This document shows, piece by piece, positions 724 through 52,213 of a DNA stretch of 64,000 nt. How positions within the stretch are numbered: the first letter of the stretch is position 1; each line of letters starts with the position of its first letter. Below the pieces are notes generated by a model. The model did no database searches and was not told the origin of the DNA. It was given only the letters and a program-made list of their open reading frames with translations. The translations under genes and the position numbers were made by a program. Source of the stretch: Minisyncoccota bacterium (GTDB taxonomy: Bacteria; Patescibacteriota; Minisyncoccia; Phycocordibacterales; Phycocordibacteraceae); assembly GCA_036399335.1 (NCBI GenBank), contig DASWNF010000009.1:20625-84624 (forward strand). Reading direction: 5' to 3'.

Positions 724-774
724 GACCTCTACTCCCTTGCTGCCTGGACAGAACCTTAGCATAGTTGCATAAGG

Positions 775-806
775 GTTCCAACATCGTCCCAGACTGCCAG
801 CAATTG
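775..806 (+). repeat. copy 1 of a recurrent ~30-bp intergenic motif (GTTCCAACATCGTCCCAGACTGCCAGCAA)
   Basis: Direct reading. The same motif recurs at 1095, 1411, 2243, 2723, 33777, 34369 and 34747. Confidence 0.8.
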
Positions 807-810
807 TTGT

Positions 811-1092
811 ATGCTTGAGTGTATGGAATTTCTATATAAAGCGTTTCTACTATTGTTCTGGATTGGTGTGACTTGGCTATTGTATAGAGCCCTTAGAAGT
901 GGCCACATAATGCAGTTTGGTCAGTATCCGAACCCGGATTATCGTATTGGTTCTAATAATCCTGATCACCACCTCTACCGGCACTGGGACAGGAGCAAGA
1001 ATCCGACTGCTTTCTACGTAACCCTTGTAGGGGTGATTGTTATCTTATTTTCACTCACAGGACTCGCGTTAATGTCTTTTACTCAAAACTAG
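811..1092 (+). CDS. small membrane protein (2 predicted TM helices), AT-richer cassette-like ORF
   Basis: Two hydrophobic stretches. Its TAG stop directly abuts motif copy 2. Confidence 0.55.
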   Translation: MLECMEFLYKAFLLLFWIGVTWLLYRALRSGHIMQFGQYPNPDYRIGSNNPDHHLYRHWDRSKNPTAFYVTLVGVIVILFSLTGLALMSFTQN

Positions 1093-1094
1093 GG

Positions 1095-1126
1095 CTCGAA
1101 CATCGTCCCCATTCTTCCAGCAATAC
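1095..1126 (+). repeat. motif copy 2 (GCTCGAACATCGTCCCCATTCTTCCAGCAA, more diverged)
   Basis: Aligned to the consensus by eye. Confidence 0.6.
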
Positions 1127-1179
1127 TCTTGGTAGCAGGAAGTGTGGCATACTAACGCAGGCAACCGAGGGAGTTGGAC

Positions 1180-1323
1180 ATGGCATATCTGAGTCGCGAT
1201 ATTATCGAAAAAATGCACGAGCTGCGGAAAGGGTACGAGATTATCGAAGATGCCCGTCAGAGGTATGTCGAGAAGGTTCGGGCAGACCGCGCTGAACCAC
1301 CGCTTCCGCTGGAGCTTCCATGA
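1180..1323 (+). CDS. small hypothetical protein (47 aa), below the ORF-track length cutoff
   Basis: ATG preceded by a GGGAG Shine-Dalgarno-like sequence. It lies between motif copies 2 and 3. Translation: MAYLSRDIIEKMHELRKGYEIIEDARQRYVEKVRADRAEPPLPLELP. Confidence 0.35.
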   Translation: MAYLSRDIIEKMHELRKGYEIIEDARQRYVEKVRADRAEPPLPLELP

Positions 1324-1410
1324 AGTCATGAATCTGAGGCACTGCTCTTTGCAGCTGTTCAACCGCCCAAGCACCATGCTTGGGCGGTTTCGCATACCAT
1401 AGTTCCATCA

Positions 1411-1442
1411 TCGTCCCAGACCGCCAGCAAAAGCTATATACT
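1411..1442 (+). repeat. motif copy 3 (AGTTCCATCATCGTCCCAGACCGCCAGCAA)
   Basis: Direct reading. Confidence 0.8.
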
Positions 1443-1449
1443 TTAGGTC

Positions 1450-2241
1450 ATGATCAACTCATCAGTTCCAGTTCAAAAAATTGGGTCATATTTTGAGATA
1501 GATAACGACGGTTATGTCACGAATCCGAGTTCGCTTGAGAAGCTTCAGGCGGAGTGGAAGCCACTTATTGATGAAGTGGTAGAAGCATATAAGCGTCATT
1601 CTGGAGACACGCTTCACAGCATCTATGTTCGGGGCTCGGTAGCTCGAGGAAAGGCAATAACTGGGATTTCGGACGTCGACAGCTACGCCTACACGACTCA
1701 AGAGGGGAAGCTGGACAAAACCTGGATGAAAGAGGAAGAGGAAACTCTCTTAAAAAGATTTCCCTTTGCGGAAGGTATAGAGTTTTCGCTCGACCTGCTC
1801 AAGTTCGCAGAGGAAGATCACGTTATGCTGGCTCAAAGCGTCTGTCTATACGGCACGGACCTCACGATACAAGCGCCTAAGCTTAAGCCGGGAAGGGATA
1901 TGGTGGTCCATGTCCTCACGCTCGGTAAGCGTCTTGAGTGGCTTGAAAAACGTCTGCAGCAAATCGACAGTGAAGAGGATATTAAAAAGGCCTGCCTCTG
2001 GCTCATGAAGACTTTCTTGCGTTCCGGATTTGAACTCACCATGCCTCTATCCGGTATGTATACGCGTGACCTGTACCCCTGCTACGAGACATTCTCCAAA
2101 TACTATCCGGATCGTGAGTCCCAGATGTGCGAGTTCCTACGTTTGGCTCTTAACCCCATAGCGGATAAGAAGACGCTTAGAGTTATGGCAAGAGAGTTCG
2201 GGGGCTGGCTACAAGAAGAGGCGAAGCGTGTGTATACATAA
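1450..2241 (+). CDS. nucleotidyltransferase-domain protein with ANT(3'')/ANT(9)/AadA-like architecture; putative aminoglycoside adenylyltransferase-like
   Basis: GS-x11-DxD motif (RGSVARGKAITGISDVDSY) closely resembles AadA (LYGSAVDGGLKPHSDIDLL). It has a helical C-terminal domain and 263 aa, the same length class as AadA. Coding is AT-richer than the surroundings. Confidence 0.6.
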   Translation: MINSSVPVQKIGSYFEIDNDGYVTNPSSLEKLQAEWKPLIDEVVEAYKRHSGDTLHSIYVRGSVARGKAITGISDVDSYAYTTQEGKLDKTWMKEEEETLLKRFPFAEGIEFSLDLLKFAEEDHVMLAQSVCLYGTDLTIQAPKLKPGRDMVVHVLTLGKRLEWLEKRLQQIDSEEDIKKACLWLMKTFLRSGFELTMPLSGMYTRDLYPCYETFSKYYPDRESQMCEFLRLALNPIADKKTLRVMAREFGGWLQEEAKRVYT

Positions 2242-2242
2242 G

Positions 2243-2273
2243 AGTTCCAACGTCGTCCCAGACAGCCGAAATT
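2243..2273 (+). repeat. motif copy 4 (AGTTCCAACGTCGTCCCAGACAGCCGAAA)
   Basis: Direct reading. The stop TAA of the upstream ORF abuts it. Confidence 0.75.
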
Positions 2274-2290
2274 AATGTTCTAATAGCTTC

Positions 2291-2716
2291 ATGCAAGAAA
2301 GGGGGGGCAAGATCATTCGCAACGCCTCAGTCCAATTGGCGATTATCTTTCCTTTTATCTGGTTCGTATTGCTTTCCATACAGGCAGTTCGTGAGGGAAC
2401 GGCGAGCATCTATCTCGAAATGGGATGGCTAGCAGTCCCGCTTAGCTTGCTTATGGCAAGTGATTCGTTCGTAAGGTATACAAAGATAGATTTTGAAAAT
2501 AAAACCATTTCTACTAAAGATGGAATTGGGAATAAGACAATCCTTACCGAGGGGAGTCTTCTAAGGATTATTAAAAAGGGTAGTGCCTATGATCTGGTTT
2601 ATTCAGAAAACGGTGTAGAGAAAACGGTACGGTGGTCGCTCTTCTTTTATGCGCCCAAGAAACAAAAGATGATTGTAGAGACCTTATTAGCGTTTAATCC
2701 ACGTGTCGTTAAATAA
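2291..2716 (+). CDS. hypothetical membrane protein (N-terminal TM helices, possible bacterial PH-like C-terminal domain)
   Basis: ORF with two hydrophobic segments. It lies between motif copies 4 and 5. Confidence 0.5.
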   Translation: MQERGGKIIRNASVQLAIIFPFIWFVLLSIQAVREGTASIYLEMGWLAVPLSLLMASDSFVRYTKIDFENKTISTKDGIGNKTILTEGSLLRIIKKGSAYDLVYSENGVEKTVRWSLFFYAPKKQKMIVETLLAFNPRVVK

Positions 2717-2722
2717 GGAAAG

Positions 2723-2754
2723 GGTTCCAGTATCGTCCCAGAGCCCAGCAGGGT
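2723..2754 (+). repeat. motif copy 5 (GGTTCCAGTATCGTCCCAGAGCCCAGCAGG)
   Basis: Direct reading. The stop TAA of the 2291-2716 ORF abuts it. Confidence 0.75.
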
Positions 2755-2948
2755 TGAAGCCGCTAACTTGCAATATAGCCCCAAACCTGTTACGGTATGG
2801 GCACAATCGTTCTCCTAGTTTTGGCGCGAGTAGCCCTCAGCCCCGGGATTTTCATCCCACTAAACTCGAGATCGCTTGGATCTCTGATTAACGCACAGAG
2901 TTTACTTAATCCGCCCGGGAGCGTTTCGGGCTACTAGTTTTGACTCAT

Positions 2949-4220
2949 ATGGCAACTGAATATATTCGCCGCACTGACGGCCGCCGTCCTCCGCGTACCG
3001 GAGGCTACAGCCGCGTCGGTTCTACCAGCAAACCCCGTTCTTCATCAGGTGGTGACCGCTCACGCGGTAACTCGGGTAATTCCCGCAGCCGCAGCGGAGG
3101 AGGGAAGCGCAATTACCAGGAGATGTCCGTCGACCTCTCGAAGCTCGTGAACAAGGCCCAACCGGCCGAAGAGGTGGAAGCCTTCAACCCGGTGCACGCC
3201 TTCACGGATTTTCCCATCGACGAGCAGCTTAAGGACAACATCGTCAGCAAGGGCTATGCGCTCCCGACCCCTATCCAGGACCAGTCGATCCCGCACGTGC
3301 TTGCGGGCCGCGACATCGTCGGCATCGCGAACACTGGTACCGGCAAGACGGCGAGCTTCCTCGTGCCGCTCATCGATAAGGTATTGAAGGACCGCCAGGA
3401 ACGCATCCTCATCATGGTGCCGACCCGCGAGCTCGCTATCCAGATTGAAGAGGAGTTCTACGGCTTTGCGAAGCGCCTTAACGTCCACGCCGTTACGTGC
3501 GTCGGCGGTGCAGGCATCGAGCCCCAGCTCCGCGGCCTCCGCAGGAGCCCGAACTTCGTCATCGGCACGCCGGGACGCCTTAAGGACCTGATCGAGCGCC
3601 GCTCGCTTAACCTTTCGTCCTTCGCCACCGTCGTACTCGACGAGGCCGATCGCATGCTCGACATGGGCTTCATCGGCGACATGCGTGAAATCATGGGATA
3701 CATGCCGGAGAACCGCCACACGCTCTTCTTCTCGGCAACCCTGTCCCGCGATATCGAGGCACTCATCGGCGCCTTCCTGAACGACCCGGTACGGGTCTCG
3801 GTGAAGACGCGCGATACGGCCCACACCATCGACCAGGACGTCGTCCGCATCGAAGGCGGCCGCAAGTTTGAGCAGCTCGTTGAGCTCCTCCAGGAGCCCG
3901 AGTTCGACAAGGTGCTGGTCTTCGGACGCACGAAGCACGGCGTCGAACGCCTCGCGAACGACCTCCTGCGCGCAAACATCCCGGCTGAGAGCATCCATGG
4001 CGACAAGACGCACGGACGCCGCCAGAAGGCGCTTGGCCTCTTCAAGCAGGATAAGGTGCGCGTGCTCGTCGCGACTGACGTTGCCGCCCGCGGCCTCGAC
4101 ATCTCCGGCGTCTCACACGTCATCAACTACGACCTGCCAGCGACGTATGAAGACTATACGCACCGCATCGGCCGTACCGGCCGCGCAGGGAAGACGGGTA
4201 AGGCACTTACCTTCATCTAA
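2949..4220 (+). CDS. DEAD-box ATP-dependent RNA helicase with an Arg/Gly/Ser-rich N-terminal extension
   Basis: Q motif (PTPIQ), motif I (TGTGKT), DEAD (VLDEADRMLDMGF), SAT, HGDKTHGRRQ, VATDVAARGLDI, HRIGRTGRAGKTG. Confidence 0.92.
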   Translation: MATEYIRRTDGRRPPRTGGYSRVGSTSKPRSSSGGDRSRGNSGNSRSRSGGGKRNYQEMSVDLSKLVNKAQPAEEVEAFNPVHAFTDFPIDEQLKDNIVSKGYALPTPIQDQSIPHVLAGRDIVGIANTGTGKTASFLVPLIDKVLKDRQERILIMVPTRELAIQIEEEFYGFAKRLNVHAVTCVGGAGIEPQLRGLRRSPNFVIGTPGRLKDLIERRSLNLSSFATVVLDEADRMLDMGFIGDMREIMGYMPENRHTLFFSATLSRDIEALIGAFLNDPVRVSVKTRDTAHTIDQDVVRIEGGRKFEQLVELLQEPEFDKVLVFGRTKHGVERLANDLLRANIPAESIHGDKTHGRRQKALGLFKQDKVRVLVATDVAARGLDISGVSHVINYDLPATYEDYTHRIGRTGRAGKTGKALTFI

Positions 4221-24164: not shown

Positions 24165-24251
24165 GGAGACGTCGCATAGTGGTCTAGTGCACCGCCTTGG
24201 AAAGGCGGCAGACTCGAAAGGGTCTCGAGAGTTCGAATCTCTCCGTCTCCG
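24165..24251 (+). tRNA. tRNA-Ser (anticodon GGA), long variable arm; CCA not encoded
   Basis: Acceptor GGAGACG/CGTCTCC, anticodon stem CCGCC/GGCGG with loop TTGGAAA, long variable arm, T-loop GTTCGAATC. Confidence 0.9.
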
Positions 24252-24267
24252 CCTGATTATTTTCTTA

Positions 24268-25311
24268 TCACCCTAGCCAGAACCAAAACTTGTTTTTGAG
24301 GTCTCGGCCAAGCTTGTACGCGTTTGCGTGAGACAACACGCCTAGATACGAGCGCAGCGATGCTTCAAGGCGATCTTTTCCCATCTGACCCTGCTTATGC
24401 TCCCTGACCCTGCTTTCCAGCTTCCTGAATATACGGCTCTTTGTCCTGGCCCTCGGGAGTATGCAGTGGGGAAGGACGACGTATCCAAGAAAGTCCACAC
24501 CCTGTCCGTATTTTCGTATGTCTATTTTGTTTGGGTGAAGAACAAGCTCCAAGCGCTCGCCCAGGAATTCCTCAATCTGTGGAATAAGCGCCTCCAAGTA
24601 GCCTTTGTCGCGCGACACGATAATAAAATCGTCTGTATATCTTGCGTAGTGCTTTACGCGCAACGCGTGTTTCATAAACTGATCAAACTCGTTCATATAA
24701 ATGTTTGCGAACAACTGCGACGTCAGGTTGCCGATAGGGATACCGGCATGCTTAAGGTGGCTCTGTCCCACAGCAAAGCTGCCTACAATCTCTCGCATGA
24801 GCCACATGACGTCACGATCTACAATTCGTCGCTCCAGTATTTCAAGCAGGACGCCGTGGTCGACAGAGTCGAAGAACTTCCGAACGTCGCACTTAAGCGC
24901 GTAACAGGTTCTTGTATTGTTCCGGCTTTCGGAACGGAGCATCTTGGCTATGGCTTCTACGCCTTTATGGGCACCTTTGCCAATGCGGCACGAGAAGGAG
25001 GTGGCTATAAAGCTCGGCTCGAATATGGGATTCAGGACGGCAAAAACGACGTGGTGAAGCACGCGATCTCTGACTGTCGCTTTACTAATCTCTCGGAGTT
25101 TCGGATCGGTGATGCGAAAGCCCGCGTACTCCTGATGCCGATACGTTTTGTCGCGCAAGTCGCGCTGGAGCTTGAAAATGTTCTTCTCAAGCTCCTTCTC
25201 GAAGCGAAGCACATCAAGTTTATTCCGTTTGCCTTTCTTAAAGCGGTCCCACGCCGAAAACAACGCCTCTGCCGAGACAATCTTTTCAAACAATCGCTCA
25301 TGCTGCTCCAT
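24268..25311 (-). CDS. diversity-generating retroelement (DGR) reverse transcriptase
   Basis: RT motifs including IPIGNLTSQLFANIYMNEFD (the DGR-type [IV]GxxxSQ signature) and YTDDF (YxDD), ~350 aa. The N-terminus LFEKIVSAEALFSAWDRFKKGKRNK is typical of DGR RTs. Confidence 0.9.
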   Translation of the reverse strand: MEQHERLFEKIVSAEALFSAWDRFKKGKRNKLDVLRFEKELEKNIFKLQRDLRDKTYRHQEYAGFRITDPKLREISKATVRDRVLHHVVFAVLNPIFEPSFIATSFSCRIGKGAHKGVEAIAKMLRSESRNNTRTCYALKCDVRKFFDSVDHGVLLEILERRIVDRDVMWLMREIVGSFAVGQSHLKHAGIPIGNLTSQLFANIYMNEFDQFMKHALRVKHYARYTDDFIIVSRDKGYLEALIPQIEEFLGERLELVLHPNKIDIRKYGQGVDFLGYVVLPHCILPRARTKSRIFRKLESRVREHKQGQMGKDRLEASLRSYLGVLSHANAYKLGRDLKNKFWFWLG

Positions 25312-25313
25312 AT

Positions 25314-25664
25314 ATGAATGAGGTTGATATACCGATTCTAAAGAAGTCCTATGACTTGTACCGAACTTTTCATGAGTACCGGAAGGTTGTGCCGAAACAA
25401 GACCGTTTTACTATCTTCGAGCGCAGCGAGAACGTGATGCTTGATCTCATCGAGTGCCTCTTGTCGGCCGGGTACGGCGATAAACAAGGTAAGCGCCCGA
25501 TTCTTGAGCGCGCGAGCATAAAATTGAATGTGCTTCGCTTCTTTATCCGGCTCATGAAGGAAACAAAGTCTCTAGATAATAAGAAGTATGTGGTTCTTCA
25601 GGAGATGATCGACGAGATCGGCAGGATGCTAGGAGGGTGGACGCGCTCACTTGAGTCCCGATAA
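25314..25664 (+). CDS. avd: DGR accessory variability determinant Avd (four-helix-bundle protein)
   Basis: 116 aa. IKLNVLRFFIRLMKE ... EIGRMLGGW matches the conserved Avd helices (compare bAvd LAMLRFWLRFL ... EVGRILGSW). Confidence 0.85.
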   Translation: MNEVDIPILKKSYDLYRTFHEYRKVVPKQDRFTIFERSENVMLDLIECLLSAGYGDKQGKRPILERASIKLNVLRFFIRLMKETKSLDNKKYVVLQEMIDEIGRMLGGWTRSLESR

Positions 25665-32795: not shown

Positions 32796-32803
32796 CATAT
32801 ATT

Positions 32804-33141
32804 GTGGACCGGCCCGATAAGCCGAATTCTGTCCGGGGCCGAAGCCCCTAGGACGGTCATCTATCTGGGATGGCTGTTACCAGCCACCTCGAGCGGCGCT
32901 CCAGGTCAAGCCTGGCTCGGCCTTGCACCGGGGTAAGGATTTAGCCGTTTCAGCCCGGGATCGCTCCGGGGACGCTCTCAGGGAGAGCACCTATCCTTTC
33001 GGAATCGGTCGTTTCTGTTCGCACCTCGTAGTTCGCACTAGGCGGGCGTTACCCGCTACCTTGCTGCGCTCTTCCGAGCGCCGGTGTTCGGACTTTCCTC
33101 TAGGGCCGGAGCCCCAGCGACCGTCTAGACCGGTCCGGCAG
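32804..33141 (-). ncRNA. rnpB: RNase P RNA (bacterial type A)
   Basis: Minus strand reads GAGGAAAGUCCGAAC (P4 5' strand), GGUAACGCCCG, AACAGAAACGACCG, and ACAGAAUUCGGCUUAUCGGGCCGGUCC (P4 3' strand plus P1). GG to AA and CC to UU covary in P4. P1 pairs the two ends. Confidence 0.85.
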
Positions 33142-33276
33142 CAATATACCACGCGTATCCATACTAACCATGGTTCGAAACTAGTCTGCCCAGCGATGAT
33201 AAAGAAAAGCCGTCGCTTGTAAGTGCCCATAAGGCGACTTAGAAGCGACGACTTGAGTCTGCTTGCCTAGTTCAGG

Positions 33277-33762
33277 CTAGGCTTCCGGGAAACCGAGGCG
33301 GAGAAACCCATCGGGGTCGTAGACGCCGCCGTTCAGGTGGAAGCTCACGGCACCCTGTACAGAACTGACGTTCTTGATTCTCAGCTCGGCGAGCGCCTTA
33401 GCCAACGAATCCATGTAGCCGTGAAAGGCATAGAGTTGAGCAGGCTTGATAGCCTGGATGGACAGTCGGAACTTAACCGTATGCGCTCCCCATTTGTGGT
33501 CGAAAGCTATGTCAGGCCCAAGAACGCTCGGCTCTTTCCATTCTTCACCCCGCGTAGCATCGCGCCACGGATGCGCTTCGCTAAAGTTCAGGAGCGCTAC
33601 CCGCAAGTCGCTCACGAGGGAATGCCTGGGGTAATAGCGAGAGGTAATGAAGCTGATGCTGCCCTCGCAACTGTGGCGTGTTTGACGCCAGTTTTCACGG
33701 GTCTCCATAGGAGGACCTCCTCTATCGGGCGGAACTACCCGAGACAAATGGTACTCGTCCAA
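33277..33762 (-). CDS. hypothetical protein (orphan)
   Basis: Protein-like ORF between rnpB and the island. An antisense ORF of similar length also exists. Confidence 0.4.
   Translation of the reverse strand: MDEYHLSRVVPPDRGGPPMETRENWRQTRHSCEGSISFITSRYYPRHSLVSDLRVALLNFSEAHPWRDATRGEEWKEPSVLGPDIAFDHKWGAHTVKFRLSIQAIKPAQLYAFHGYMDSLAKALAELRIKNVSSVQGAVSFHLNGGVYDPDGFLRLGFPEA
33708..33762 (-). other. alternative start region; see the CDS 33277-33762
   Basis: Internal Met METRENW. Confidence 0.1.
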
Positions 33763-33776
33763 ATAAGGATGTCAAA

Positions 33777-33808
33777 GTTCCAGCATCGTCCCAGAGCCCA
33801 GCAAGTGC
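33777..33808 (+). repeat. motif copy 6 (AGTTCCAGCATCGTCCCAGAGCCCAGCAAG)
   Basis: Direct reading, 13 nt upstream of the ATG at 33821. Confidence 0.8.
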
Positions 33809-33820
33809 TAGCATAAGAAC

Positions 33821-34345
33821 ATGAATAAATACGTGATACTTGTCGTTTTGTGTGCGGCACTCTTAGGCGTATTCCTTTTAAACAAAAACTGGTCAGGAAA
33901 CGACACGACTAATTACGAAGGGGCGCCAGCCTCCTCAAGCGTTATGAGCGTGATTGACTTAAAGCCAGGAGATATTTCTGGAGGTATGCGTGTAGTTTCC
34001 ATTGAGCCATATAACAAGGAGTTCGGGCCGTTGGCATCAAACAATGCTAAGGCGGAGTTCTCTGGGACTGCGGTAATTGAAGGAGAGTACAACTATTATT
34101 TTAGTGAGCTTGGCGGTGACTGGTGGCTCAGTTTTTCCGCCTCAAGCACGAGTAGTGGGCTTCCGGCGGTCGAAGAAAGATCCCCAGGTTTTAGCGTGAT
34201 CAACCAGGAGGAAGCACTGCGCCTTCTTAAAATCACACCGCAAATAGCTGCAAAGGGTGCGGCTCGCGTTACGGTGCAAAATTACACGTTAGAAAGCTAT
34301 CCATCAGAGGTAAGTGATAAATCAACAATTATTTCCGTAGAGTAA
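33821..34345 (+). CDS. hypothetical secreted protein (signal peptide), AT-richer
   Basis: N-terminal hydrophobic signal sequence. Codon usage is lower-GC. Confidence 0.55.
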   Translation: MNKYVILVVLCAALLGVFLLNKNWSGNDTTNYEGAPASSSVMSVIDLKPGDISGGMRVVSIEPYNKEFGPLASNNAKAEFSGTAVIEGEYNYYFSELGGDWWLSFSASSTSSGLPAVEERSPGFSVINQEEALRLLKITPQIAAKGAARVTVQNYTLESYPSEVSDKSTIISVE

Positions 34346-34368
34346 TCTTGCCGTTCTTAGGGCAGCGG

Positions 34369-34398
34369 TTCCAACATCGTCCCACACTCTCAACAATA
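34369..34398 (+). repeat. motif copy 7 (GGTTCCAACATCGTCCCACACTCTCAACAA)
   Basis: Direct reading. Followed by the hairpin cggccgcag-actag-ctgcggccg at 34400-34422. Confidence 0.7.
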
Positions 34399-34431
34399 AC
34401 GGCCGCAGACTAGCTGCGGCCGCGTTCCATC

Positions 34432-34722
34432 TCAGGCTGGCTTCTGTCCCAGAATCGAAATATTCACTTCTTCAAACCAGCGCTGCTCGAGGAACTCATT
34501 AGGGAGTGGATCCTTCTCGCGCTGCTCCTGCTCACCATGGGCGCGAGCTTTCTCCATCCACGCCTCAGAAATGGCGTCATGGTTTGCCGGGATAGCCGTC
34601 TGTGTGAGAAATGTAGCGAGTCTCCTTAGTCCTTCTTTATCCGTAGGTTTGGTCTCGCTGATAAGATTGAGGACCGACTCATGAAAGGGCATTAGCATGG
34701 TGCTTCTCCTTAGCCTCCACAC
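34432..34722 (-). CDS. hypothetical small protein
   Basis: Minus-strand ORF between motif copies 7 and 8. Confidence 0.45.
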   Translation of the reverse strand: MWRLRRSTMLMPFHESVLNLISETKPTDKEGLRRLATFLTQTAIPANHDAISEAWMEKARAHGEQEQREKDPLPNEFLEQRWFEEVNISILGQKPA

Positions 34723-34746
34723 TATCTAACCCCAACATACTTAAAG

Positions 34747-34775
34747 AAGTTCCAACGCTGTCCTACTGCCAATTA
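34747..34775 (+). repeat. motif copy 8 (degenerate: AGTTCCAACGCTGTCCTACTGCCAATTA)
   Basis: Aligned by eye. Weaker match. Confidence 0.5.
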
Positions 34776-34855: not shown

Positions 34856-37800
34856 ATGGAACTTACCCGCACCTTTGGTGGGTTAAGTAAGAACGACGCC
34901 CCAATCGCCGGCGGGAAAGGTGCGTCCCTTGGCGAAATGACCCAGGCGGGTATTCCGGTGCCTCCCGGATACGTTATTCTCTCTTCCGCCTTCGAGCGCT
35001 TTCTTGAGGAGGCAGACCTCATCCAGGAAGTGGAGGCAATTCTCGGACAAGTAGACCATAACGAGGTCCACACCATAGAACGTGCTTCCGAAGAGATCCA
35101 AGGCCTCATCTTGAACGCGAAGATGCCTGAGAATATCGAAACCGATGTTATGAAACTCTTCAGGGAACTCGATACTGAGTACGTTGCGGTGCGCTCATCC
35201 GCGACTGCTGAGGACGGGGCTGAGCACGCATGGGCAGGACAACTCGACAGTTATCTCAATACGACCGAGGAGGCACTCCTAAAGAACGTACAGCGCTGCT
35301 GGGCGTCTCTCTTCACCCCTCGTGCCATCTTCTATCGTTTCGAAAAGGGCTTGCATACGACCAGCATTTCAGTCGCCGTTGTGGTACAGAAAATGGTCGA
35401 CTCTGAAATCTCAGGGATCGCTTTCTCAGTGCATCCAATCACTGAAGACCGGAACCAGCTCATTATCGAATCGGGCTTCGGTCTCGGTGAAGCTATTGTT
35501 TCCGGCCAAGTGACCCCTGACAGCTACGTGGTCGAGAAGCAGCCACGGAAGCTTATCGATAAGAATATTTCGGCCCAAACCCGCGGCATTTACCGTGCTG
35601 AAGAAGGAGGGAATGAGTGGCGAGATATTCCTGAACCAAAAGCTTCCTCTCAGGTGCTCTCCGATGAGCAAATCCTTGAGCTCTCAGAGCTCGTCATACG
35701 AATCGAGACCCACTACGGCTTCCCATGCGATATTGAGTGGGCGTACGAGAAGGGAAGTTTCTATATAACCCAGAGCAGGCCAATTACGACCCTCTCGTCA
35801 TTAACGAATGAGAATAGGCGACCGCTGTATAGGGTAAATGTTGCACGCGATATTTGCCTCGCTACGTTTGAGGTGTGGGCAGAGAGTGATACCAAGTACC
35901 TCAACGACTGGATAGGAGTTACTACTGAGCGGCTAGTCTTGGAAAGAAAGGAAGGAGTGATTACCGCCTATGAGGACGAGCAGATATTCAAGGATGTTAC
36001 TGAACGGCTCACGTATCTCCTGAAGGACCCAGAGTGGTTCAACACCGCAATTGAGAAATATCGGGCGGGAATCAAACGCGCAGAAGAGCTAAAGGGAGTC
36101 CTTCGAGAGAGCCCTTCTAAGGAGAATTTACGAAGGTTGTTTGAGCAACTTGCTCGTACTCAGGGCGGCCTAGCCGTTGTGTATTTTGTCCCTTCAGTCG
36201 CGGGTATACCTGAGGAGATAAAGGAACGAGCGCTTGATGAGCGTAAGAATACAGAAGCGTTTTTCTATAGCTCTGACGAGGTGCTTAGCGAAGCAATTAA
36301 GACCCTATACCCTGACCAAGCTGAGTATGCGCAAATTCTAAGCATCGAGGAACTTACAACAAATCTTCCTTATGTAAGCGAACTGCAGAAACGACTTAAT
36401 CATTTCATCTATTACGATAAGAAGTTCTTCTATGATCAAGGCCTGGAAGTTGTAGAAAATGAATTAGGTATTCAGATTGAAAGGCCTACGCCTACAAGTA
36501 ACACATATCAGAAGCATCAGCGTGACTACACGCTGCTAGGAACCTCCGTCGTGTTCTCAGGGTACTGCGGTAAAGTTACTCAGGATTACTTCTCCTTCTC
36601 CCCGCAGCCGATGTTCATTTATATAAATAATGGTATTTTGTACCACTTTACCTCTGAGGGGGACTCGGCTGGCCGCGCAAAATCATGGGTGCATAAATAT
36701 GGGTCGGCCAAGGAGCTAGACGCGCACAAGAAGGTGCACGACACTCTCCTAAAGGACTATCGCGCCTTTATGGCGAGGGAAGGTCATAGTGGACGCGAGA
36801 GCCTCCCCATATTGCACAAATATTTTACTAACCTACTTCCTCTAATTCTCGTTGCGATTGAAGTCCCAGAGCATGAGGCGGCAATAGACAAGGAAATTAT
36901 TGACGCGTGTTTTAAGATTCGTTCGGAAAACGAGGACGTGTATAAAGTGGGCTTTGACTTCCAAAAGAAGCTACTTAACCAGCTGGAGACAGAAGACGGG
37001 CTTGCGGAAAACGTCCTCTCGCTTACTACGGTAAACGAGTTTGACAGGTATCTTTCCACAGGCGCATTGCCGACTGATCTAGTAAACAGGAATGCATTTG
37101 CTCTTATAGAGCACGGTACTGGAGGCATTATCGTCCATAAAGATGAATCAAAACTTACTGAGTTAGATCGCCAGGCTACGGTTACTGACACCAGCGAGTT
37201 GAAAGGCAATACTGCGTATGGTGGGAGGGCTACGGGAAGAGTGCGCATTATTAAGCTGGTTAAAGACATGGACCAGCTTCAAGAAGGCGAGGTTCTTGTG
37301 GCATCAATGACGGATCCAAGATACGTTCCAGCGATGAAAAAAGCCGCAGCAATCGTTACCGATGAGGGTGGAGTAACGAGCCACGCGGCGATAGTCGCGA
37401 GAGAGCTGAAGAAGCCCTGCATTATTGGTACCAAAGTTGCCACCCAAGTATTAAGAAATGGAGACGACGTTGATGTGGACGCGGACTCTGGAGTAATCCG
37501 CATAGTGAAGCGAGCGCCATTGTTCAAAAAAGAGGATTACGTACTTTCATTTTGGGCGCAGGGAGTGAGTATTTTTGTTACGGATATTCATTTTGATGCT
37601 TACAAACACCTAGGCATTCTCTTCATAATTGAAGATGGAAAATTCAAACAGTACTTCCTAAAGGAAAAATACGAGGAAGCCCTTGATGAAGGAGTCAAGT
37701 TTTACAGTCAGGAGCATGCGGTCCTGGAGTACAAGGAGGCGCTTGAGGCGCATTGCAATAACCTGGCTCAATTCTTTGAGACTCAAATTAAGGGGAAGGA

Positions 37801-38596
37801 GCATCTCGCTCAAAATCAGGTTAGAGAATTTTTTGAGTACACAAAGAAACTCGTAGGGGACTACACCAAAATGAATTTTGAGTATACGGACAAGGCGTAC
37901 ACCAAGAAGGACCAAGATACAGTGATTGAGAGTAATCTTGCGCTCATCACCAAGTTTAAGGACGAAGTACGGGCCGTCATGAACAAGACCCTCTTTGAAT
38001 CAGATGGCTATGTCGCGGAAATTTGGAAAATCTTGGCTAAACAGTTTGACGTGGCTCCCGCAATGCTCGATAACCTGACACAAGAGGAGATACTTGCATT
38101 GTTTAGTGGCTCTAAGCCAGCTGCTGACGTGGCAGATAGGCGGCACGCGTTTGTATATAGTTACGCGAATCGTATGCCAATAGATGGGGAGGAGGCCGTG
38201 AGCATAGTCAAAGAATTTGAGGAGAACGTAGACGCTGCAATGGAGTTGCGTGGCCAGACGGCAAACAAGGGCAAGGTTAGGGGGAGGGTAAAAGTAATCG
38301 CGGTAGATTACAGCGATTTCGGGAAATTAAACAGAGAAATTGAGCGCATGAAGGAGGGTGAAGTCCTCGTCGCCGAGACGACCGCACCCGAGCTGTTGAT
38401 GGCCTGCAAAAAAGCGGGTGCCATCATTACAGATATGGGTGGCTTGATGTCGCATGCCGCTATCGTGAGCCGGGAGTTCGGCATCCCCTGCATTGTTGGA
38501 ACAAAAAATGCGAGCCAGGTGCTCAAAGACGGTGACTTAGTAGAAGTGGATGCCGATACGGGGGTGGTCACCAGGATTGAAACTAGCCGCAGTTAA
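34856..38596 (+). CDS. large PEP-utilizing-enzyme-family protein: N-terminal PEP-synthase/PPDK-type ATP-grasp nucleotide-binding domain plus two phosphohistidine swivel domains (rifampin-phosphotransferase/PEP-synthase-like architecture, duplicated)
   Basis: GGKGASLGEM ... VAVRSSATAEDG in the N-terminal domain. Two copies of the mobile His domain (GGVTSHAAIVARELKKPCIIGTK and GGLMSHAAIVSREFGIPCIVGTK). AT-richer coding. Confidence 0.75.
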   Translation: MELTRTFGGLSKNDAPIAGGKGASLGEMTQAGIPVPPGYVILSSAFERFLEEADLIQEVEAILGQVDHNEVHTIERASEEIQGLILNAKMPENIETDVMKLFRELDTEYVAVRSSATAEDGAEHAWAGQLDSYLNTTEEALLKNVQRCWASLFTPRAIFYRFEKGLHTTSISVAVVVQKMVDSEISGIAFSVHPITEDRNQLIIESGFGLGEAIVSGQVTPDSYVVEKQPRKLIDKNISAQTRGIYRAEEGGNEWRDIPEPKASSQVLSDEQILELSELVIRIETHYGFPCDIEWAYEKGSFYITQSRPITTLSSLTNENRRPLYRVNVARDICLATFEVWAESDTKYLNDWIGVTTERLVLERKEGVITAYEDEQIFKDVTERLTYLLKDPEWFNTAIEKYRAGIKRAEELKGVLRESPSKENLRRLFEQLARTQGGLAVVYFVPSVAGIPEEIKERALDERKNTEAFFYSSDEVLSEAIKTLYPDQAEYAQILSIEELTTNLPYVSELQKRLNHFIYYDKKFFYDQGLEVVENELGIQIERPTPTSNTYQKHQRDYTLLGTSVVFSGYCGKVTQDYFSFSPQPMFIYINNGILYHFTSEGDSAGRAKSWVHKYGSAKELDAHKKVHDTLLKDYRAFMAREGHSGRESLPILHKYFTNLLPLILVAIEVPEHEAAIDKEIIDACFKIRSENEDVYKVGFDFQKKLLNQLETEDGLAENVLSLTTVNEFDRYLSTGALPTDLVNRNAFALIEHGTGGIIVHKDESKLTELDRQATVTDTSELKGNTAYGGRATGRVRIIKLVKDMDQLQEGEVLVASMTDPRYVPAMKKAAAIVTDEGGVTSHAAIVARELKKPCIIGTKVATQVLRNGDDVDVDADSGVIRIVKRAPLFKKEDYVLSFWAQGVSIFVTDIHFDAYKHLGILFIIEDGKFKQYFLKEKYEEALDEGVKFYSQEHAVLEYKEALEAHCNNLAQFFETQIKGKEHLAQNQVREFFEYTKKLVGDYTKMNFEYTDKAYTKKDQDTVIESNLALITKFKDEVRAVMNKTLFESDGYVAEIWKILAKQFDVAPAMLDNLTQEEILALFSGSKPAADVADRRHAFVYSYANRMPIDGEEAVSIVKEFEENVDAAMELRGQTANKGKVRGRVKVIAVDYSDFGKLNREIERMKEGEVLVAETTAPELLMACKKAGAIITDMGGLMSHAAIVSREFGIPCIVGTKNASQVLKDGDLVEVDADTGVVTRIETSRS

Positions 38597-38795
38597 AAGA
38601 GGGTATGAGTAATAGAGCCTTAACCCGTCCGTAGCGGGCTCGACACAATCCATTTAGCTCTCGGAAGAGCTCCAGGAAACCGCCTAGATGCTATTCAAGC
38701 TGTCCCCAAAATAATTAAGGACCAGGTGCGAGCGCGCTATACTAAAGGAGTTATTAATTGTGCAGGGTTAATCCCGTAATTACGGAGTAAAAAAT

Positions 38796-41213
38796 ATGGA
38801 ACCTACAACTTCCGCATCGACGGCGCCTCACCCCAGGCGTACTTCGTTCGATGCGCTCGCCCTGTGGGCGCTTACGATAACCGCGTCGCTCGCGGCCGTC
38901 GTATTCATCCCCTCAGCTGGCATACCGTTTATCTATAGCAAGGTGTCGGTCTTGGCCCTCGGCGGCCTTGTCGCCCTTGCGTTCTATGTCCTGGCACGCC
39001 TTACACGCGGCAACATCATCGTGCCGCCTATGGCGCTCGTCGGGGCATTCTGGCTCGTACCGCTCGCGTACGCGCTCTCAAGCCTGTTCTCGGGAGTCGG
39101 CATCATGGCCGGACTCTTCGGTAACGCGCTTGAGACGGACACGCTCGGCTTCATGATCATCCTCGCATCCTTCGCGAGCCTGGTCGCGCTCACCTTCCGT
39201 CGTTCAAGCCAGTACCGGATCTTCTTCAAGGCAGCACTTATCGTGCTCGGGCTCGTGCTTGCCGCCCAAATAGTGTTCCTCATCATCGGCAATACGTCGG
39301 AGTCCTTGTCGGCAACGGCAAACCTCGTCGGTTCCTTCGCCGACCTCGGCATGCTGCTCGGCCTCGGCGTCGCGCTCATCTTGCTTGCGTTCCGTTTCCT
39401 CGAACTCGATGAGCGGATGGTGCGCGTGCTCTGGGCGATTGAAGGCCTTTCGCTCCTCATGCTCGCCTTGGTGAACTCACGTCTCGTCTGGGTCCTCGTG
39501 TCCCTCGTCGCACTCGGCCTCTTCATCGAAGCCATCATGCGTCGCCAGGGCACGAGCAACGACGACGACCTTGAAGGTGGAAGCCTCGTCTCGGACGACG
39601 TTCGTTCGCTTGATAACGCGCCCGCAACCGATCCGCACGGCCTTGCCGCGCCGCTCGTGACGCTCGTCGCCGCGCTCTTCTTCGTCATCGGCGGGAGCAC
39701 CATCGGTACGAGCCTCGCAAACACGCTGGGCGTCAGCTACCTCGATGTCCGTCCGTCTTGGCAGGCCACCTTCGATGTCGGGAGCCATACCTACGCGGCG
39801 TCACCGCTCTTTGGTTCGGGCCCTGGCTCGTTCGTAAGCGAGTGGCTTAAGTTCAAGGACCGCGCGCTTAACGAGACGGTCTTCTGGAACGTCGACTTCA
39901 CGTCAGGTATCGGCCTCATCCCGACATCGTTCATCACGACCGGTATTGCCGGAGCCCTCGCGTGGCTCGCCTTTATCGGTATCTTCCTCTACGTGGGTAT
40001 CAGGTTCCTCCTGTTCCGCGCCCCTGAGGAAGCGTTTGCGCGGTACGTATCGATAGCGACCTTCGTCGGTACCATCTACGTACTTGCGCTCGCCGTCTTC
40101 TCCGTGCCAGGGCCGGTCGTGCTCATCGCCGGCTTCTTCCTCGCCGGACTGTTCGCGTCCTCGCTCCGCTACGGCGGTACGCGGCGTGAACGGGGCATTA
40201 TCTTCTCGCGAAACCCGCGCGTCGGCTTCATTATCGTCTTCGTACTGACGCTGCTTTTGCTGGCGTCCGTCGTGACGGCCTATGTCGTCATTGAGCGGTA
40301 CCTCGCCGACGTCTCGTACCAGAAGGGAACGGCCATGCTCGCAGATGGCGACCTCGCCGGAGCCGATGCGGCCGCGCGCCGCTCACTCGTCTTCGCGGCA
40401 AGCGACCGGGCATACCAGCTCGCCGCAGCCGTAGGCATTGCGAACATGAACCGTATCGCCGCCGATACGACCTTGGCGCCTTCCGAAGCGCAGCAGCAAT
40501 TCCAGGCATCGCTTTCAAGCGCGATCCAGGCATCGCTCGCCGCTACGCAGCTCCGCCCGGACAACTACCAGAACTGGGTAGCGCTCGGCAATGTGTACCA
40601 GACCGTCGTACCGCTCCGCATCGAAGGCGCGTATGAGAACGCGAAAGCCGCATACGAGCGCGCCGTGGAACTGAACCCGACCAACCCGACCCTGCCGTTC
40701 GTCATGGCGCAGCTCGAGATTGCACGCGGGAACGGCCAGGCGGCAGAAGCCGAGCTTGTGAAGGCGATCGGGCTCAAGCGCGATTACACACAGGCCATCT
40801 TCCTCTTGTCACAGCTCGAGGTGCAGCTCGGTAAGGCCCGCGAGGCCCTCCAGGCTGCCGAGGCCGCGGCGTACTTCGCGCCGAACGACCCGGTTGTCCT
40901 CTTCCAGGTCGGTATCCTCCGCTCGGGTACGGGCGACGTCGATGGCTCGGTCCAGGCACTTTCGCGTGCCGTGGAACTCAATCCGCAGTACGCTAACGCC
41001 CGGTTCTTCCTCGCCGTCTCGTACGCAACCAAGGGAGCCTTCGACCAAGCGCTTGCGCAGCTGAATGCCGTTGCGGCACTCTCACCGGAGAACGCTGCAG
41101 CCGTCGACACCTACATCACGGCCCTCGCGCAAGGACGCAACCCGTTCCCGCGCCAGGCGCTTAGCATTCCGCCTCCCGTAACCGACACGCCACAGACAAG
41201 AACCGGACAGTAG
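38796..41213 (+). CDS. O-antigen ligase/Wzy_C-family membrane protein fused to C-terminal TPR repeats (possible O-oligosaccharyltransferase)
   Basis: >10 TM helices, ASPLFGSGPGSF Wzy_C-type motif, then TPR-like repeats (AYERAVELNP, LSRAVELNPQY). Confidence 0.7.
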   Translation: MEPTTSASTAPHPRRTSFDALALWALTITASLAAVVFIPSAGIPFIYSKVSVLALGGLVALAFYVLARLTRGNIIVPPMALVGAFWLVPLAYALSSLFSGVGIMAGLFGNALETDTLGFMIILASFASLVALTFRRSSQYRIFFKAALIVLGLVLAAQIVFLIIGNTSESLSATANLVGSFADLGMLLGLGVALILLAFRFLELDERMVRVLWAIEGLSLLMLALVNSRLVWVLVSLVALGLFIEAIMRRQGTSNDDDLEGGSLVSDDVRSLDNAPATDPHGLAAPLVTLVAALFFVIGGSTIGTSLANTLGVSYLDVRPSWQATFDVGSHTYAASPLFGSGPGSFVSEWLKFKDRALNETVFWNVDFTSGIGLIPTSFITTGIAGALAWLAFIGIFLYVGIRFLLFRAPEEAFARYVSIATFVGTIYVLALAVFSVPGPVVLIAGFFLAGLFASSLRYGGTRRERGIIFSRNPRVGFIIVFVLTLLLLASVVTAYVVIERYLADVSYQKGTAMLADGDLAGADAAARRSLVFAASDRAYQLAAAVGIANMNRIAADTTLAPSEAQQQFQASLSSAIQASLAATQLRPDNYQNWVALGNVYQTVVPLRIEGAYENAKAAYERAVELNPTNPTLPFVMAQLEIARGNGQAAEAELVKAIGLKRDYTQAIFLLSQLEVQLGKAREALQAAEAAAYFAPNDPVVLFQVGILRSGTGDVDGSVQALSRAVELNPQYANARFFLAVSYATKGAFDQALAQLNAVAALSPENAAAVDTYITALAQGRNPFPRQALSIPPPVTDTPQTRTGQ

Positions 41214-49516: not shown

Positions 49517-49861
49517 TTACCGATGAATCCGTTCTGAATAAGTGGTATGACCAACCCGAGAAAAAGCGATGACTGACTCGCCGCTATCGTCAGGCAGGAC
49601 AAGGCAGGTAGATTCTTTGGATAGTCGCACCACATCTCCATCCGTATCCGGGTAGTAGGAAGAGTCTTGTACGATCAAGATGCGGACGGCCGCGCCGCAG
49701 GCACGGGCAGCATGTTTCGCTATAACCCTGTTTTCCAGGTCCGTGCTATTCATTCTCGAATAGAAGCTTGACTGGGTAGCCGTAATCGCGAACGAGGTGA
49801 GTGTGAGCGAAAGGAGGAATATGGTCACTAGGGCGATGTAAGCGCGGTGCGTATGAGTCAT
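49517..49861 (-). CDS. hypothetical protein with N-terminal TM in the pilus operon (possible atypical minor pilin)
   Basis: Lies between pilin genes on the same strand. Hydrophobic N-terminus without a canonical GFxxxE motif. Confidence 0.45.
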   Translation of the reverse strand: MTHTHRAYIALVTIFLLSLTLTSFAITATQSSFYSRMNSTDLENRVIAKHAARACGAAVRILIVQDSSYYPDTDGDVVRLSKESTCLVLPDDSGESVIAFSRVGHTTYSERIHR

Positions 49862-50325
49862 GACGCAGTAAGCACTAAAAGGCGCTTAACTTCTCGAACT
49901 ACGGGCTGCCCGCTTCTGGTTCGTGTAGATAGCCGTATCTCTAGATGCAGGTCTGCACCCCTCCTTTCAAAGGAAAGCACCTCTGTGGTTATATCTCCAT
50001 CGCTTACCAGAAGGACGCCGTGACTATCCTCTAATACGATATGGTCTTCTGTCACATAGATGCTGAAGACCCCTTCAGGCGTGCGGGCGCTAAGCCGGCG
50101 CCCATGTCCATTTGGACCTGGCTCTTCAATTGTTTGGGCCTGGCTGACTACGTACTCAACCTTCTGTACGACAAACTCCAGCTCATCTGTGAGCCGTGCA
50201 TCAGTCTCGACCCGCGCTGCACTATCGGTAACGGCGCGAAAGGCAGTCGCTATACCCGTCACGAGTACGGAGAAGAGCGCAATATAGAGAAGCAGTTCAA
50301 TCATCGTGAAGCCGCGCATATTCAA
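49858..50325 (-). CDS. prepilin-type N-terminal domain protein (minor pilin/pseudopilin)
   Basis: MNMRG|FTMIELLLYIALFSVL. Confidence 0.8.
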   Translation of the reverse strand: MNMRGFTMIELLLYIALFSVLVTGIATAFRAVTDSAARVETDARLTDELEFVVQKVEYVVSQAQTIEEPGPNGHGRRLSARTPEGVFSIYVTEDHIVLEDSHGVLLVSDGDITTEVLSFERRGADLHLEIRLSTRTRSGQPVVREVKRLLVLTAS

Positions 50326-51782: not shown

Positions 51783-51783
51783 A

Positions 51784-52212
51784 TTAGTGGATGCTAATGC
51801 TGCCGATTCGGCTTACCGACAATATTCTTACTTTCCCCGGGCCGGTATCGATCCGCACGGCTACCGGCTGCTTCACATCCCCAGATTGTGGGAGGAAAGA
51901 GATTTCCGTTGGCTCAAGCTGCAAGTGACCGGAAAGCGGAATACGCTCGTACGTAACATCGGCATCAAGGAGCGCTATCTCATCCGAAGTAATGCGTACC
52001 GACTGTATTGTGCCGGCGTGGCACGCCGCTTCCCGGCATGACTCAGTCATCGCAAGGACACGGGCCCGCCGCAGGAAGAGCATTATTTGGTCAACTTCAG
52101 ATTGGGCCGCTACTCGACGGTACTCGCTGGCACCTGTCCATGCGGCACCTCCCAGTAAGACGGTCAGTATGCCCAGTACGCACATGAGTTCGATGAGAGT
52201 GAACGCGCGCAT
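51784..52212 (-). CDS. prepilin-type pseudopilin (GspH-like)
   Basis: MRA|FTLIELMCVLGILTVL from the internal Met. Confidence 0.75.
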   Translation of the reverse strand: MRAFTLIELMCVLGILTVLLGGAAWTGASEYRRVAAQSEVDQIMLFLRRARVLAMTESCREAACHAGTIQSVRITSDEIALLDADVTYERIPLSGHLQLEPTEISFLPQSGDVKQPVAVRIDTGPGKVRILSVSRIGSISIH

Positions 52213-52213
52213 G

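Follow-up and report, generated by a model that had tools for sequence, protein, structure and literature searches.

Single-gene units bounded by a conserved 35-nt motif and preceded by tRNA-Gln-like tails suggest a cassette-capture system in Patescibacteria

We analysed 64,000 nucleotides of a Minisyncoccota bacterium genome (Patescibacteriota; contig DASWNF010000009.1, positions 20,625 to 84,624); this whole stretch is called the window below. The window contains two arrays of small genes separated by copies of a conserved motif, at 453-2751 and 33172-34775, with every motif copy on the + strand. The first array had been noticed in an initial annotation made from the sequence alone, which took the motif for a cassette boundary. 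That annotation overlooked the second array (motifs at 33777, 34368 and, in degenerate form, 34749), a sequence resembling the 3′ end of tRNA-Gln before each array (453-477 and 33172-33196) and a reverse-strand cassette, with an open reading frame (ORF) at 535-762, ahead of the first motif copy.

The first array opens with a ‘tail’, the putative docking site (AGTTCGAAACCTAGTCTGCCAGCAA, 453-477, + strand), which mimics the T-loop, the T-stem 3′ strand and the acceptor 3′ strand of tRNA-Gln. The tail overlaps the stop codon of a DUF4385 ORF (41-466), and ARAGORN predicts no tRNA gene at 453-477. Cassette 1 (478-768, − strand) holds a 75-aa ORF (535-762) that is called as a gene at the same place in the source contig; a hairpin at ~489-517 faces the tail, and a conserved 32-nt promoter-like extension, reverse-facing, occupies 743-774. 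Motif copy 1 (GTTCCAACATCGTCCCAGACTGCCAGCAA, 769-803, core 775-803, +; pattern and profile match) is followed by cassette 2 (804-1093, +), whose longest ORF is a small membrane-like one at 811-1092 (gene-caller start at 910) with no match in Pfam or NCBIfam. Motif copy 2 (GCTCGAACATCGTCCCCATTCTTCCAGCAA, 1094-1122, +; profile E 0.0039) is degenerate. Cassette 3 (1123-1401, +) contains a 47-aa ORF (1180-1323) and then a hairpin at ~1366-1386; it is followed by motif copy 3 (GTTCCATCATCGTCCCAGACCGCCAGCAA, 1402-1430, +; pattern and profile match) and by cassette 4 (1431-2243, +), with a 263-aa ORF (1450-2241) giving a weak nucleotidyltransferase-fold signal and a −10-like TATACT at 1437-1442, 7 nt upstream of the ATG. 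Motif copy 4 (GTTCCAACGTCGTCCCAGACAGCCGAAAT, 2244-2272, +; profile match) has a degenerate right end. The array closes with cassette 5 (2273-2723, +), a 141-aa membrane-like ORF at 2291-2716, and motif copy 5 (GTTCCAGTATCGTCCCAGAGCCCAGCAG, 2724-2751, +; profile match), directly after which comes the leader of a core DEAD-box helicase gene. A 2900-bp metagenomic contig (Logan SRR10954984, locus L157) corresponds to window positions 775-3674 and is an independent assembly of the same organism; it starts at the exact first base of motif copy 1, consistent with an assembly break induced by a repeat or a variant.

The RNase P RNA gene (32802-33136, − strand) has its 5′ end 36 nt before the tail of the second array (GGTTCGAAACTAGTCTGCCCAGCGA, 33172-33196, +). 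The first cassette (33197-33776, −) has a 143-aa ORF at 33277-33708 and a reverse-facing TTGACA-16-TACCAT match at 33775-33748, adjoining the motif copy that follows (GTTCCAGCATCGTCCCAGAGCCCAGCAAG, 33777-33805, +; profile match). The second cassette (33806-34367, +) encodes 174 aa (33821-34345) with an N-terminal signal or transmembrane segment. Directly 3′ of the next motif copy (GTTCCAACATCGTCCCACACTCTCAACAA, 34368-34396, +; profile match) lies the terminator of the next, reverse ORF: the third cassette (34397-34748, −) carries an ORF of ~88 aa at 34432-34701 and an intrinsic terminator at 34423-34399. The terminal motif copy (GTTCCAACGCTGTCCTACTGCCAATTA, 34749-34775, +) is degenerate and was recognized by eye; it falls under the profile threshold and gave no nhmmer match. 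Directly after it stands a gene for a phosphoenolpyruvate-utilising enzyme of 1246 aa (34856-38596), with PPDK_N and two mobile domains and GC content of 0.42-0.52, similar to phosphoenolpyruvate synthase or rifampin phosphotransferase though below every NCBIfam cut-off. This gene may be an oversized cassette or an island gene without a terminal motif; no motif was seen at 38597-38800.

The motif cores of array 1, read and extracted from the window, start at 775, 1094, 1402, 2244 and 2724. Thus the five copies of the initial annotation are real, while its coordinates (775, 1095, 1411, 2243 and 2723) had to be mended and the copy at 1094 proved degenerate. The full pattern given there has two exact matches in the window versus 0.00 expected by chance; the 11-mer ATCGTCCCAGA, with at most one mismatch, has six versus 1.19 expected, and two of these six revealed the second array near 33.8-34.4 kb. 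A profile built from motif copies (nhmmer) gave seven matches with E<0.01 in the 64 kb, all on the + strand; the rest was noise. Stop codons were said to abut the motif in three cases, which is right for the ORFs 811-1092 and 1450-2241 and wrong for 2291-2716, where the gap is 7 nt. The lower GC content reported for the array ORFs was confirmed (0.40-0.51 in the array; the DEAD-box helicase gene and the stretch immediately following array 1 have 0.56-0.64), and the ‘ATAAGG’ prefix turned out to be a conserved A.AAAG at motif positions −6 to −1. The ORF listing agrees with the earlier description of the array 1 ORFs apart from the AadA/ANT-like label of ORF 1450-2241, which we do not retain: its sole basis is an NTP_transf_2 match below threshold (E 0.0047, 17.7 bits versus a cut-off of 21), and this ORF has no NCBIfam match and no significant sequence match in PDB (best E 0.19).

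An exact motif scan over one genome per species yielded at least 119 loci, and a metagenome scan added 120 more; these and all further locus counts are among the matches listed. The loci of the exact scan are nearly all in metagenome-assembled genomes of Patescibacteria, the Candidate Phyla Radiation (CPR), labelled Parcubacteria/Paceibacterota, Kaiser-, Nomura-, Wolfe-, Moranii-, Levyi- and Berkelbacteria and ‘Saccharibacteria’. At least 201 CPR-type loci carry 506 motif copies, 505 on the majority strand of their locus and one on the minority strand. The loci comprise 303 units (median 557 bp), with up to eight motif copies per array; several genomes have more than one array, as the window has two. 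Motif spacing ranges from 182 to 2388 bp (median about 557-564 bp) with an ORF in each interval. An array of clustered regularly interspaced short palindromic repeats (CRISPR), with its non-coding spacers of ~30-40 bp, was therefore rejected, as it had been in the initial annotation.

About 38 single matches in high-GC sequences (Rhodobacteraceae or prophage) are not related to the arrays. They are chance matches of a 19-mer, GTTCCAACATCGTCCCAGA, inside a conserved coding gene (...VEGSNIVPDNS...) that is present in Rhodobacteraceae (L007, L018, L032, L046 and others) and in the viral loci L120-L154. The Rhodobacteraceae and IMG/VR contigs bearing it have GC content of 0.60-0.70 and contain regions ~90% identical over several kb between genera. 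A resemblance to the I-CreI target region (a homing-endonuclease site in 23S rRNA) was noted and set aside. An rRNA identity suspected for the Rhodobacteraceae loci was dropped, as there was no Rfam match. All 35 IMG/VR matches to the first of two search patterns represent this one coding stretch, a chance 19-mer amplified by gene conservation and lacking CPR flanks; the six matches to the second pattern have neither the CPR left half nor CPR flanks. Neither pattern uncovered a phage or plasmid in IMG/VR with an integrase gene next to the motif as its attP.

Over 216 copies the consensus, from position −6 to +28, is A.AAAG-GTTCCAACATCGTCCCAGAC-n-sCCAGCAA, and conservation ends outside this block. 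The motif is thus 35 nt long, C-rich and unstructured. Conservation is position-specific (position 20 is free, positions 0-16 are near-invariant), and positions 0-16 retain 84-98% conservation in copies that the scan pattern had not selected. Single-stranded DNA folds of motif copies on both strands have z-scores from −1.4 to +1.3, most being less stable than those of shuffled sequences, so the motif is not attC-like; the initial annotation was likewise right that it lacks an internal inverted repeat and does not match the attC core. In attC, imperfect inverted repeats (R''-L''...L'-R') form a single-stranded hairpin with the R' core GTTRRRY, in place of which the motif has GTTCCAA. In a search of the window against Rfam 15 the gathering score was reached only by RNase P RNA and four tRNAs, none of them inside the arrays. 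The last 16 nt of the motif (CCCAGACTGCCAGCAA) match the tail sequence CCTAGTCTGCCAGCAA at 14 of 16 positions; the 5′ half of the motif differs. Judged by this similarity, the 3′ half of the motif apparently derives from the 3′ end of tRNA-Gln.

A conserved 32-nt extension (TCTAGACAGAACCTAACATAGATTGCATAAAG) lies directly upstream of the motif at window positions 743-774 and in ~35 loci (e.g. L054 4039-4070 and L013 5563-5594). It is present only when the upstream ORF is reverse-oriented and is common to unrelated cassettes; its reverse strand reads TTGGAA-N18-TAGGTT. The extension may be a portable outward-facing promoter belonging to a long form of the site. An inverted repeat between extension and motif (GAACCT...AGGTTC) was considered and set aside, since it occurs only in the subfamily with a reverse upstream ORF and reads better as the reverse-facing promoter.

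Both window arrays are preceded by GGTTCGAAAC(C)TAGTCTGCC(C)AGC. With a strict pattern, 49 of the 98 genome loci have a co-oriented tRNA-Gln-like tail, and no tail was seen in the opposite orientation; a looser pattern places a tail no more than 1.5 kb ahead of the first motif at 76 of the 102 informative loci (~2 expected). About 40% of the visible tails are real tRNA-Gln genes; ARAGORN identified several tails as 3′ ends of genuine tRNA-Gln genes, in L003, L070, L050, L006, L075 and L002. The remainder are mimics that reproduce no more than the final 23-27 nt of the gene (T-loop, T-stem 3′ strand, acceptor 3′ strand and G73), each fused to the stop codon of a core gene, and these core genes are unrelated to one another. 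Tails at the same gene ends are found again in genomes just 65-75% identical, which indicates that the tails are old and maintained. Internal repeats share just ~16 nt with tRNA-Gln. In two loci (L006, − strand, 1408-1720 in array orientation; L056, 7040-7200) a full tRNA-Gln is followed by a 30-nt conserved spacer (ACAGCACATTTCACTC.CTC.CTTG...) and a partial tRNA-Gln of ~55 nt, after which the array comes; the partial copy of L056 has a foreign acceptor end. The partial tRNA-Gln looks like an older or a different att duplication.

Each unit consists of one compact ORF, often with a promoter-like element or terminator of its own. In 182 units (62%) the longest ORF runs in the same direction as the motif; in 111 (38%) it runs the other way. 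In forward units the ORF stop precedes the next motif by a median of 15 nt, and an extended −10 element (TGnTAnnnT) located ~8-15 nt past the preceding motif is present in 66 of 182 units (36%), compared with 2 of 111 reverse units. Conversely, TCTAGACAGAACCTAACATAGATTGCATAAAG abuts the motif in 23 of 111 reverse and 5 of 182 forward units, and the terminators of reverse units face the preceding site. A generic promoter and terminator scan gave nothing above shuffled sequences. The cargo is an open pool of mostly unannotated, very diverse genes: 367 cassette ORFs form 318 clusters, of which 276 are singletons and the largest has four members. Pfam matches were obtained for 150 of the 367 ORFs in 59 families, none with more than three members (HAD, NUDIX, DAG kinase, M14 peptidase, SDR, GNAT and others). 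No recombinase was found among the 367 cassette ORFs by the Pfam census, sequence-motif scans or tblastn probes.

Mobility of the units was assessed by all-against-all comparison of the loci and pairwise alignments. Arrays that are otherwise unrelated have single cassettes in common, and the sites delimit the homology (L003/L108, 79% identity; L012/L113, 88%; L012/L052, 86%; L039/L089, 86%). In related loci homology is lost at the same places: 4 nt before a motif in L022/L104 (92.6% identical), at one motif and at one tail end in L071/L091 (90.8%), and at the tail end, right after CCAGCAA, in L064/L089 (85.8%). Loci L003 and L070 (77%) have the same tRNA-Gln site and unrelated cassettes. Comparison of syntenic loci for presence or absence of cassettes had been proposed with the initial annotation; related genomes and metagenomes do differ in content exactly at the motif boundaries.

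The same cassette was found behind a tail in one genome and behind a motif in another in two cases (L089 versus L039 and L064 versus L187). The two-cassette block of L064/L187 begins exactly at CCAGCAA and has ~97% identity over the first 160 nt and full identity beyond; upstream of it L064 has a YchF-like gene and the tail, L187 at least three other cassettes and a motif. Several shorter similarities, some confined to the cassette start or terminator region, repeat this tail-versus-motif pattern. Left halves of the site (tail or motif) reassort with right halves (GCAA... or CCCyTTT...) at CCA. Since either left half combines with alternative right halves, the exchange point should be the CCA of ...sCCA|G, positions 70-72 of tRNA-Gln. 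With ~10-16 nt in common, tail and motif offer RecA too short a segment for recombination; together the fixed junction and the strict co-orientation of the sites favour a dedicated enzyme.

We consider it likely that the motif is the recombination site, a functional analogue of attC, of a Patescibacteria-wide, trans-acting, site-specific system of cassette capture. A mobile unit would comprise a single small gene, in most cases equipped with a promoter or terminator of its own, and a single 35-nt motif closing the unit on the 3′ side. A site-specific recombinase encoded away from the arrays would join the motif of a free, probably circular cassette to a chromosomal docking site. This site, the functional analogue of attI/attB, would be either a tRNA-Gln 3′ end or a mimic of 23-27 nt located where a core gene ends. 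Strand exchange would take place at the CCA of ...CT(G/C)CCA|GCAA (tRNA-Gln positions 70-72). Repeated insertion would build up the order tail-cassette-motif-cassette-motif...-flank with sites in direct repeat, and deletion between sites would drop cassettes. In its simplest form the process would be conservative site-specific recombination of a cassette-borne motif (attP/attC-like) with the docking site (attB/attI-like). Such a model predicts the observed order of tail, cassettes each with a trailing motif, and flank; we infer the circular intermediate, the class of enzyme and preferential insertion beside the tail.

Several points weigh against this proposal. Regular expressions for tyrosine and serine recombinases and tblastn probes, including an Xer-like protein, detected no such gene in the 64-kb window or, one hotspot excepted, beside the arrays across ~1.4 Mb of loci; a gamma-delta resolvase probe had no match beside arrays either. 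Conservation of the motif almost only on one side of the crossover, without dyad symmetry, is atypical for core sites of simple tyrosine or serine recombinases. Neither an excised circle nor an empty-site read was observed, and exact-protein look-ups for strain variants of the window's arrays returned the same organism only. The model gives no explanation for the origin of tRNA-like tails behind many unrelated core genes. Finally, locus selection required a near-perfect motif, which inflates the apparent conservation of the scanned copies.

The exceptional hotspot consists of the syntenic loci L021, L246 and L277, where orthologues of an Xer-like tyrosine recombinase, 70-77% identical, lie convergent with the array on the − strand (L021 4195-5142, L246 5431-6471, L277 4780-5628). 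The gene ends 2-15 nt past the last motif in L021 and L246 and ~0.9 kb past the last detected motif in L277. Its position may be a coincidence or a hint at the enzyme. The flanking recombinase that the initial annotation had proposed to look for was thus not found linked to arrays, this distal gene apart; given no array-linked recombinase, a flanking integrase is not to be expected.

Three other explanations were weighed. The best surviving of them, which we regard as unlikely, views the arrays as passive remains of successive integrations of integrase-bearing elements at tRNA-Gln, resembling tycheposons or accretion, with the motifs being decayed partial-tRNA att repeats and no cassette system existing at all. 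Arrays do begin at tRNA-Gln or its 3′ mimic, the 3′ half of the motif is tRNA-Gln-like, partial tRNA-Gln duplicates are present in L006 and L056, and the tycheposon islands have scattered partial tRNAs and tandem integrations (10.1101/2020.12.28.424599). However, ~200 loci yielded neither an integrase nor a fragment of one, whether inside the arrays or next to them; each unit is a compact and intact single gene (median length 557 bp), in many cases accompanied by promoter-like elements, and near-identical cassettes occupy different positions. Furthermore, the left half (GGTTCCAACATCGTCC), the part of the motif without tRNA similarity, keeps 84-98% conservation over class-level diversity, which indicates selection rather than decay.

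Exchange of cassettes by natural transformation and RecA between the 35-bp motifs and conserved flanks, with no dedicated enzyme, appears very improbable to us. CPR bacteria are generally thought to be naturally competent, the arrays sit at conserved hotspots between core genes, and the lack of an array-linked recombinase would fit; yet the same cassettes stand behind tail or motif with the junction fixed at CCA even though the two share only ~10-16 nt. Homologous anchoring should also leave uniform conservation, in contrast to the free position 20 and the near-invariant positions 0-16, and it does not fit the strict co-orientation of 505 of the 506 copies.

Least probable of all is a shared regulatory or RNA element (promoter/operator, leader, terminator/insulator or tRNA-like processing signal) in arrays that arose for other reasons: the TGnTAnnnT element that 66 of 182 forward units have at ~8-15 nt beyond the motif, the reverse-facing promoter-like extension overlapping the left end of the motif in 23 of 111 reverse units and the C-rich, unstructured character of the motif speak for it, whereas 38% of unit ORFs lie on the opposite strand, terminators of convergent genes directly follow motif copies (34368-34423), the terminal copies at 2724 and 34749 precede no cassette, no other gene in the 64-kb window has a copy upstream, there is neither a Rfam family match nor a fold, and reassortment of cassettes at CCA is left unaccounted for. 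A promoter (sigma-70, extracytoplasmic function sigma or sigma-54) came into question as several window copies have a −10-like hexamer ~35 nt after the motif start; it was rejected, there being no fixed −10 over 216 copies, in accord with the initial annotation as to sigma-70. The preference of that annotation for a recombination or cassette-boundary site over a regulatory element is supported: the motif is confined to the two arrays in 64 kb and is not ubiquitous upstream of core genes, content differs at its boundaries, and the regulatory alternative is the weaker one, with its opposite-strand ORFs and motifs directly before convergent-gene terminators.

Two other regions of the window are mentioned for completeness. 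Directly after a tRNA-Ser gene (24165-24253), in a low-GC patch, lies a reverse transcriptase gene (24271-25311, − strand; RVT_1, E 4e-23) beside a bAvd-like accessory protein gene (25314-25661, E 1e-17), so that 24165-25661 holds a pair resembling a diversity-generating retroelement. At 49517-54428 a cluster of pilin-like ORFs with type IV prepilin-type N-termini adjoins PilC-like and PilB/T-like ORFs on the − strand (by eye from translations).

Patescibacteria have genomes of ~1 Mb, depend on hosts and undergo substantial horizontal gene transfer. To our knowledge, the mechanisms of this transfer are largely undescribed. A recent survey attributes up to 13% of Patescibacteria genome length to horizontal transfer and mentions no integrases, tRNA sites or cassettes (PMC12455944). 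Our search of the full-text literature produced no match for the motif sequence on either strand and no description of such arrays or of integron-like systems in CPR. A conserved, searchable cassette-boundary site would permit a systematic catalogue of the CPR flexible gene pool, and recombination of tail with motif at CCA provides a concrete biochemical target in the hunt for the enzyme. The tail/motif pair could also serve as a genetic tool in organisms whose genetics is only starting. That putative docking sites mimicking a tRNA stand behind protein-coding genes is itself unusual. If the proposed system is real, minimal-genome symbionts would have multiple acquisition hotspots fed by a shared environmental cassette pool, and integron-like capture would have evolved more than once, here with a simple site of double-strand type.

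Among known systems, modules dependent on Xer recombination at dif sites (pdif modules of Acinetobacter plasmids and IMEX elements, integrative mobile elements exploiting Xer) have in common with the patescibacterial arrays small gene modules, short sites (~28-35 bp) and an unlinked host recombinase; an Xer-like gene abuts the array in one hotspot. A Xer/dif site has 28 bp, two inverted 11-bp Xer arms around a 6-bp spacer. In contrast, the patescibacterial motif shows no such XerC/XerD-type dyad and nothing like an ATTATGT arm; its copies are all direct, not alternating, and occur at several loci per genome as compared with a single terminus dif.

A related case of tRNA-anchored islands is the accretion of integrase-less cis-mobilizable elements at att sites of integrative and conjugative elements. 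The tycheposons of Prochlorococcus form islands anchored at tRNAs, with the partial tRNAs and tandem integrations mentioned above (10.1101/2020.12.28.424599). Shared with the arrays are anchoring at a tRNA 3′ end, tandem stacking in which newcomers would push older units distally, repeats related to the tRNA 3′ end, and integrase-less units needing mobilisation in trans. The islands are multi-kb elements that integrate at tRNA 3′ ends, leave partial-tRNA direct repeats and encode an integrase, with or without genes for replication or packaging. The patescibacterial units are single genes of 0.2-1.4 kb, and no master element with an integrase turned up for them; their internal repeat is distinct, with ~16 nt in common with the tRNA, and many docking sites are mimics behind protein genes.

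Integrons share with the arrays mostly single-gene cassettes between co-oriented sites, a distinct docking site at the array start, strain-variable content, site conservation almost entirely 5′ of the crossover and a huge, mostly unannotated cargo pool. The L064/L187 example is consistent with insertion beside the docking site, as in integrons. Known integrons include CALIN (clusters of attC sites lacking integron-integrases). The arrays differ from integrons in defining features. The patescibacterial site is a 35-nt unstructured element conserved in sequence, attC a 60-140-nt hairpin conserved in structure; the cores are GTTCCAA/...CCA|GCAA and GTTRRRY, respectively. Docking would be at a tRNA-Gln 3′ end or mimic, several per genome, and no intI tyrosine recombinase, which in integrons adjoins the array beside attI, is adjacent in the window or at ~200 loci (a distal Xer-like gene is present in one hotspot). 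Patescibacterial cassettes have their own promoter-like elements and 38% are reversed, while most integron cassettes are promoterless, co-oriented and driven by the Pc promoter. We see a somewhat better than even chance that Patescibacteria have independently invented the integron principle on a phylum-wide scale, with an unlinked dedicated or co-opted recombinase, a 35-nt unstructured site and docking at tRNA-Gln 3′ ends and at mimics of them behind several core genes per genome.

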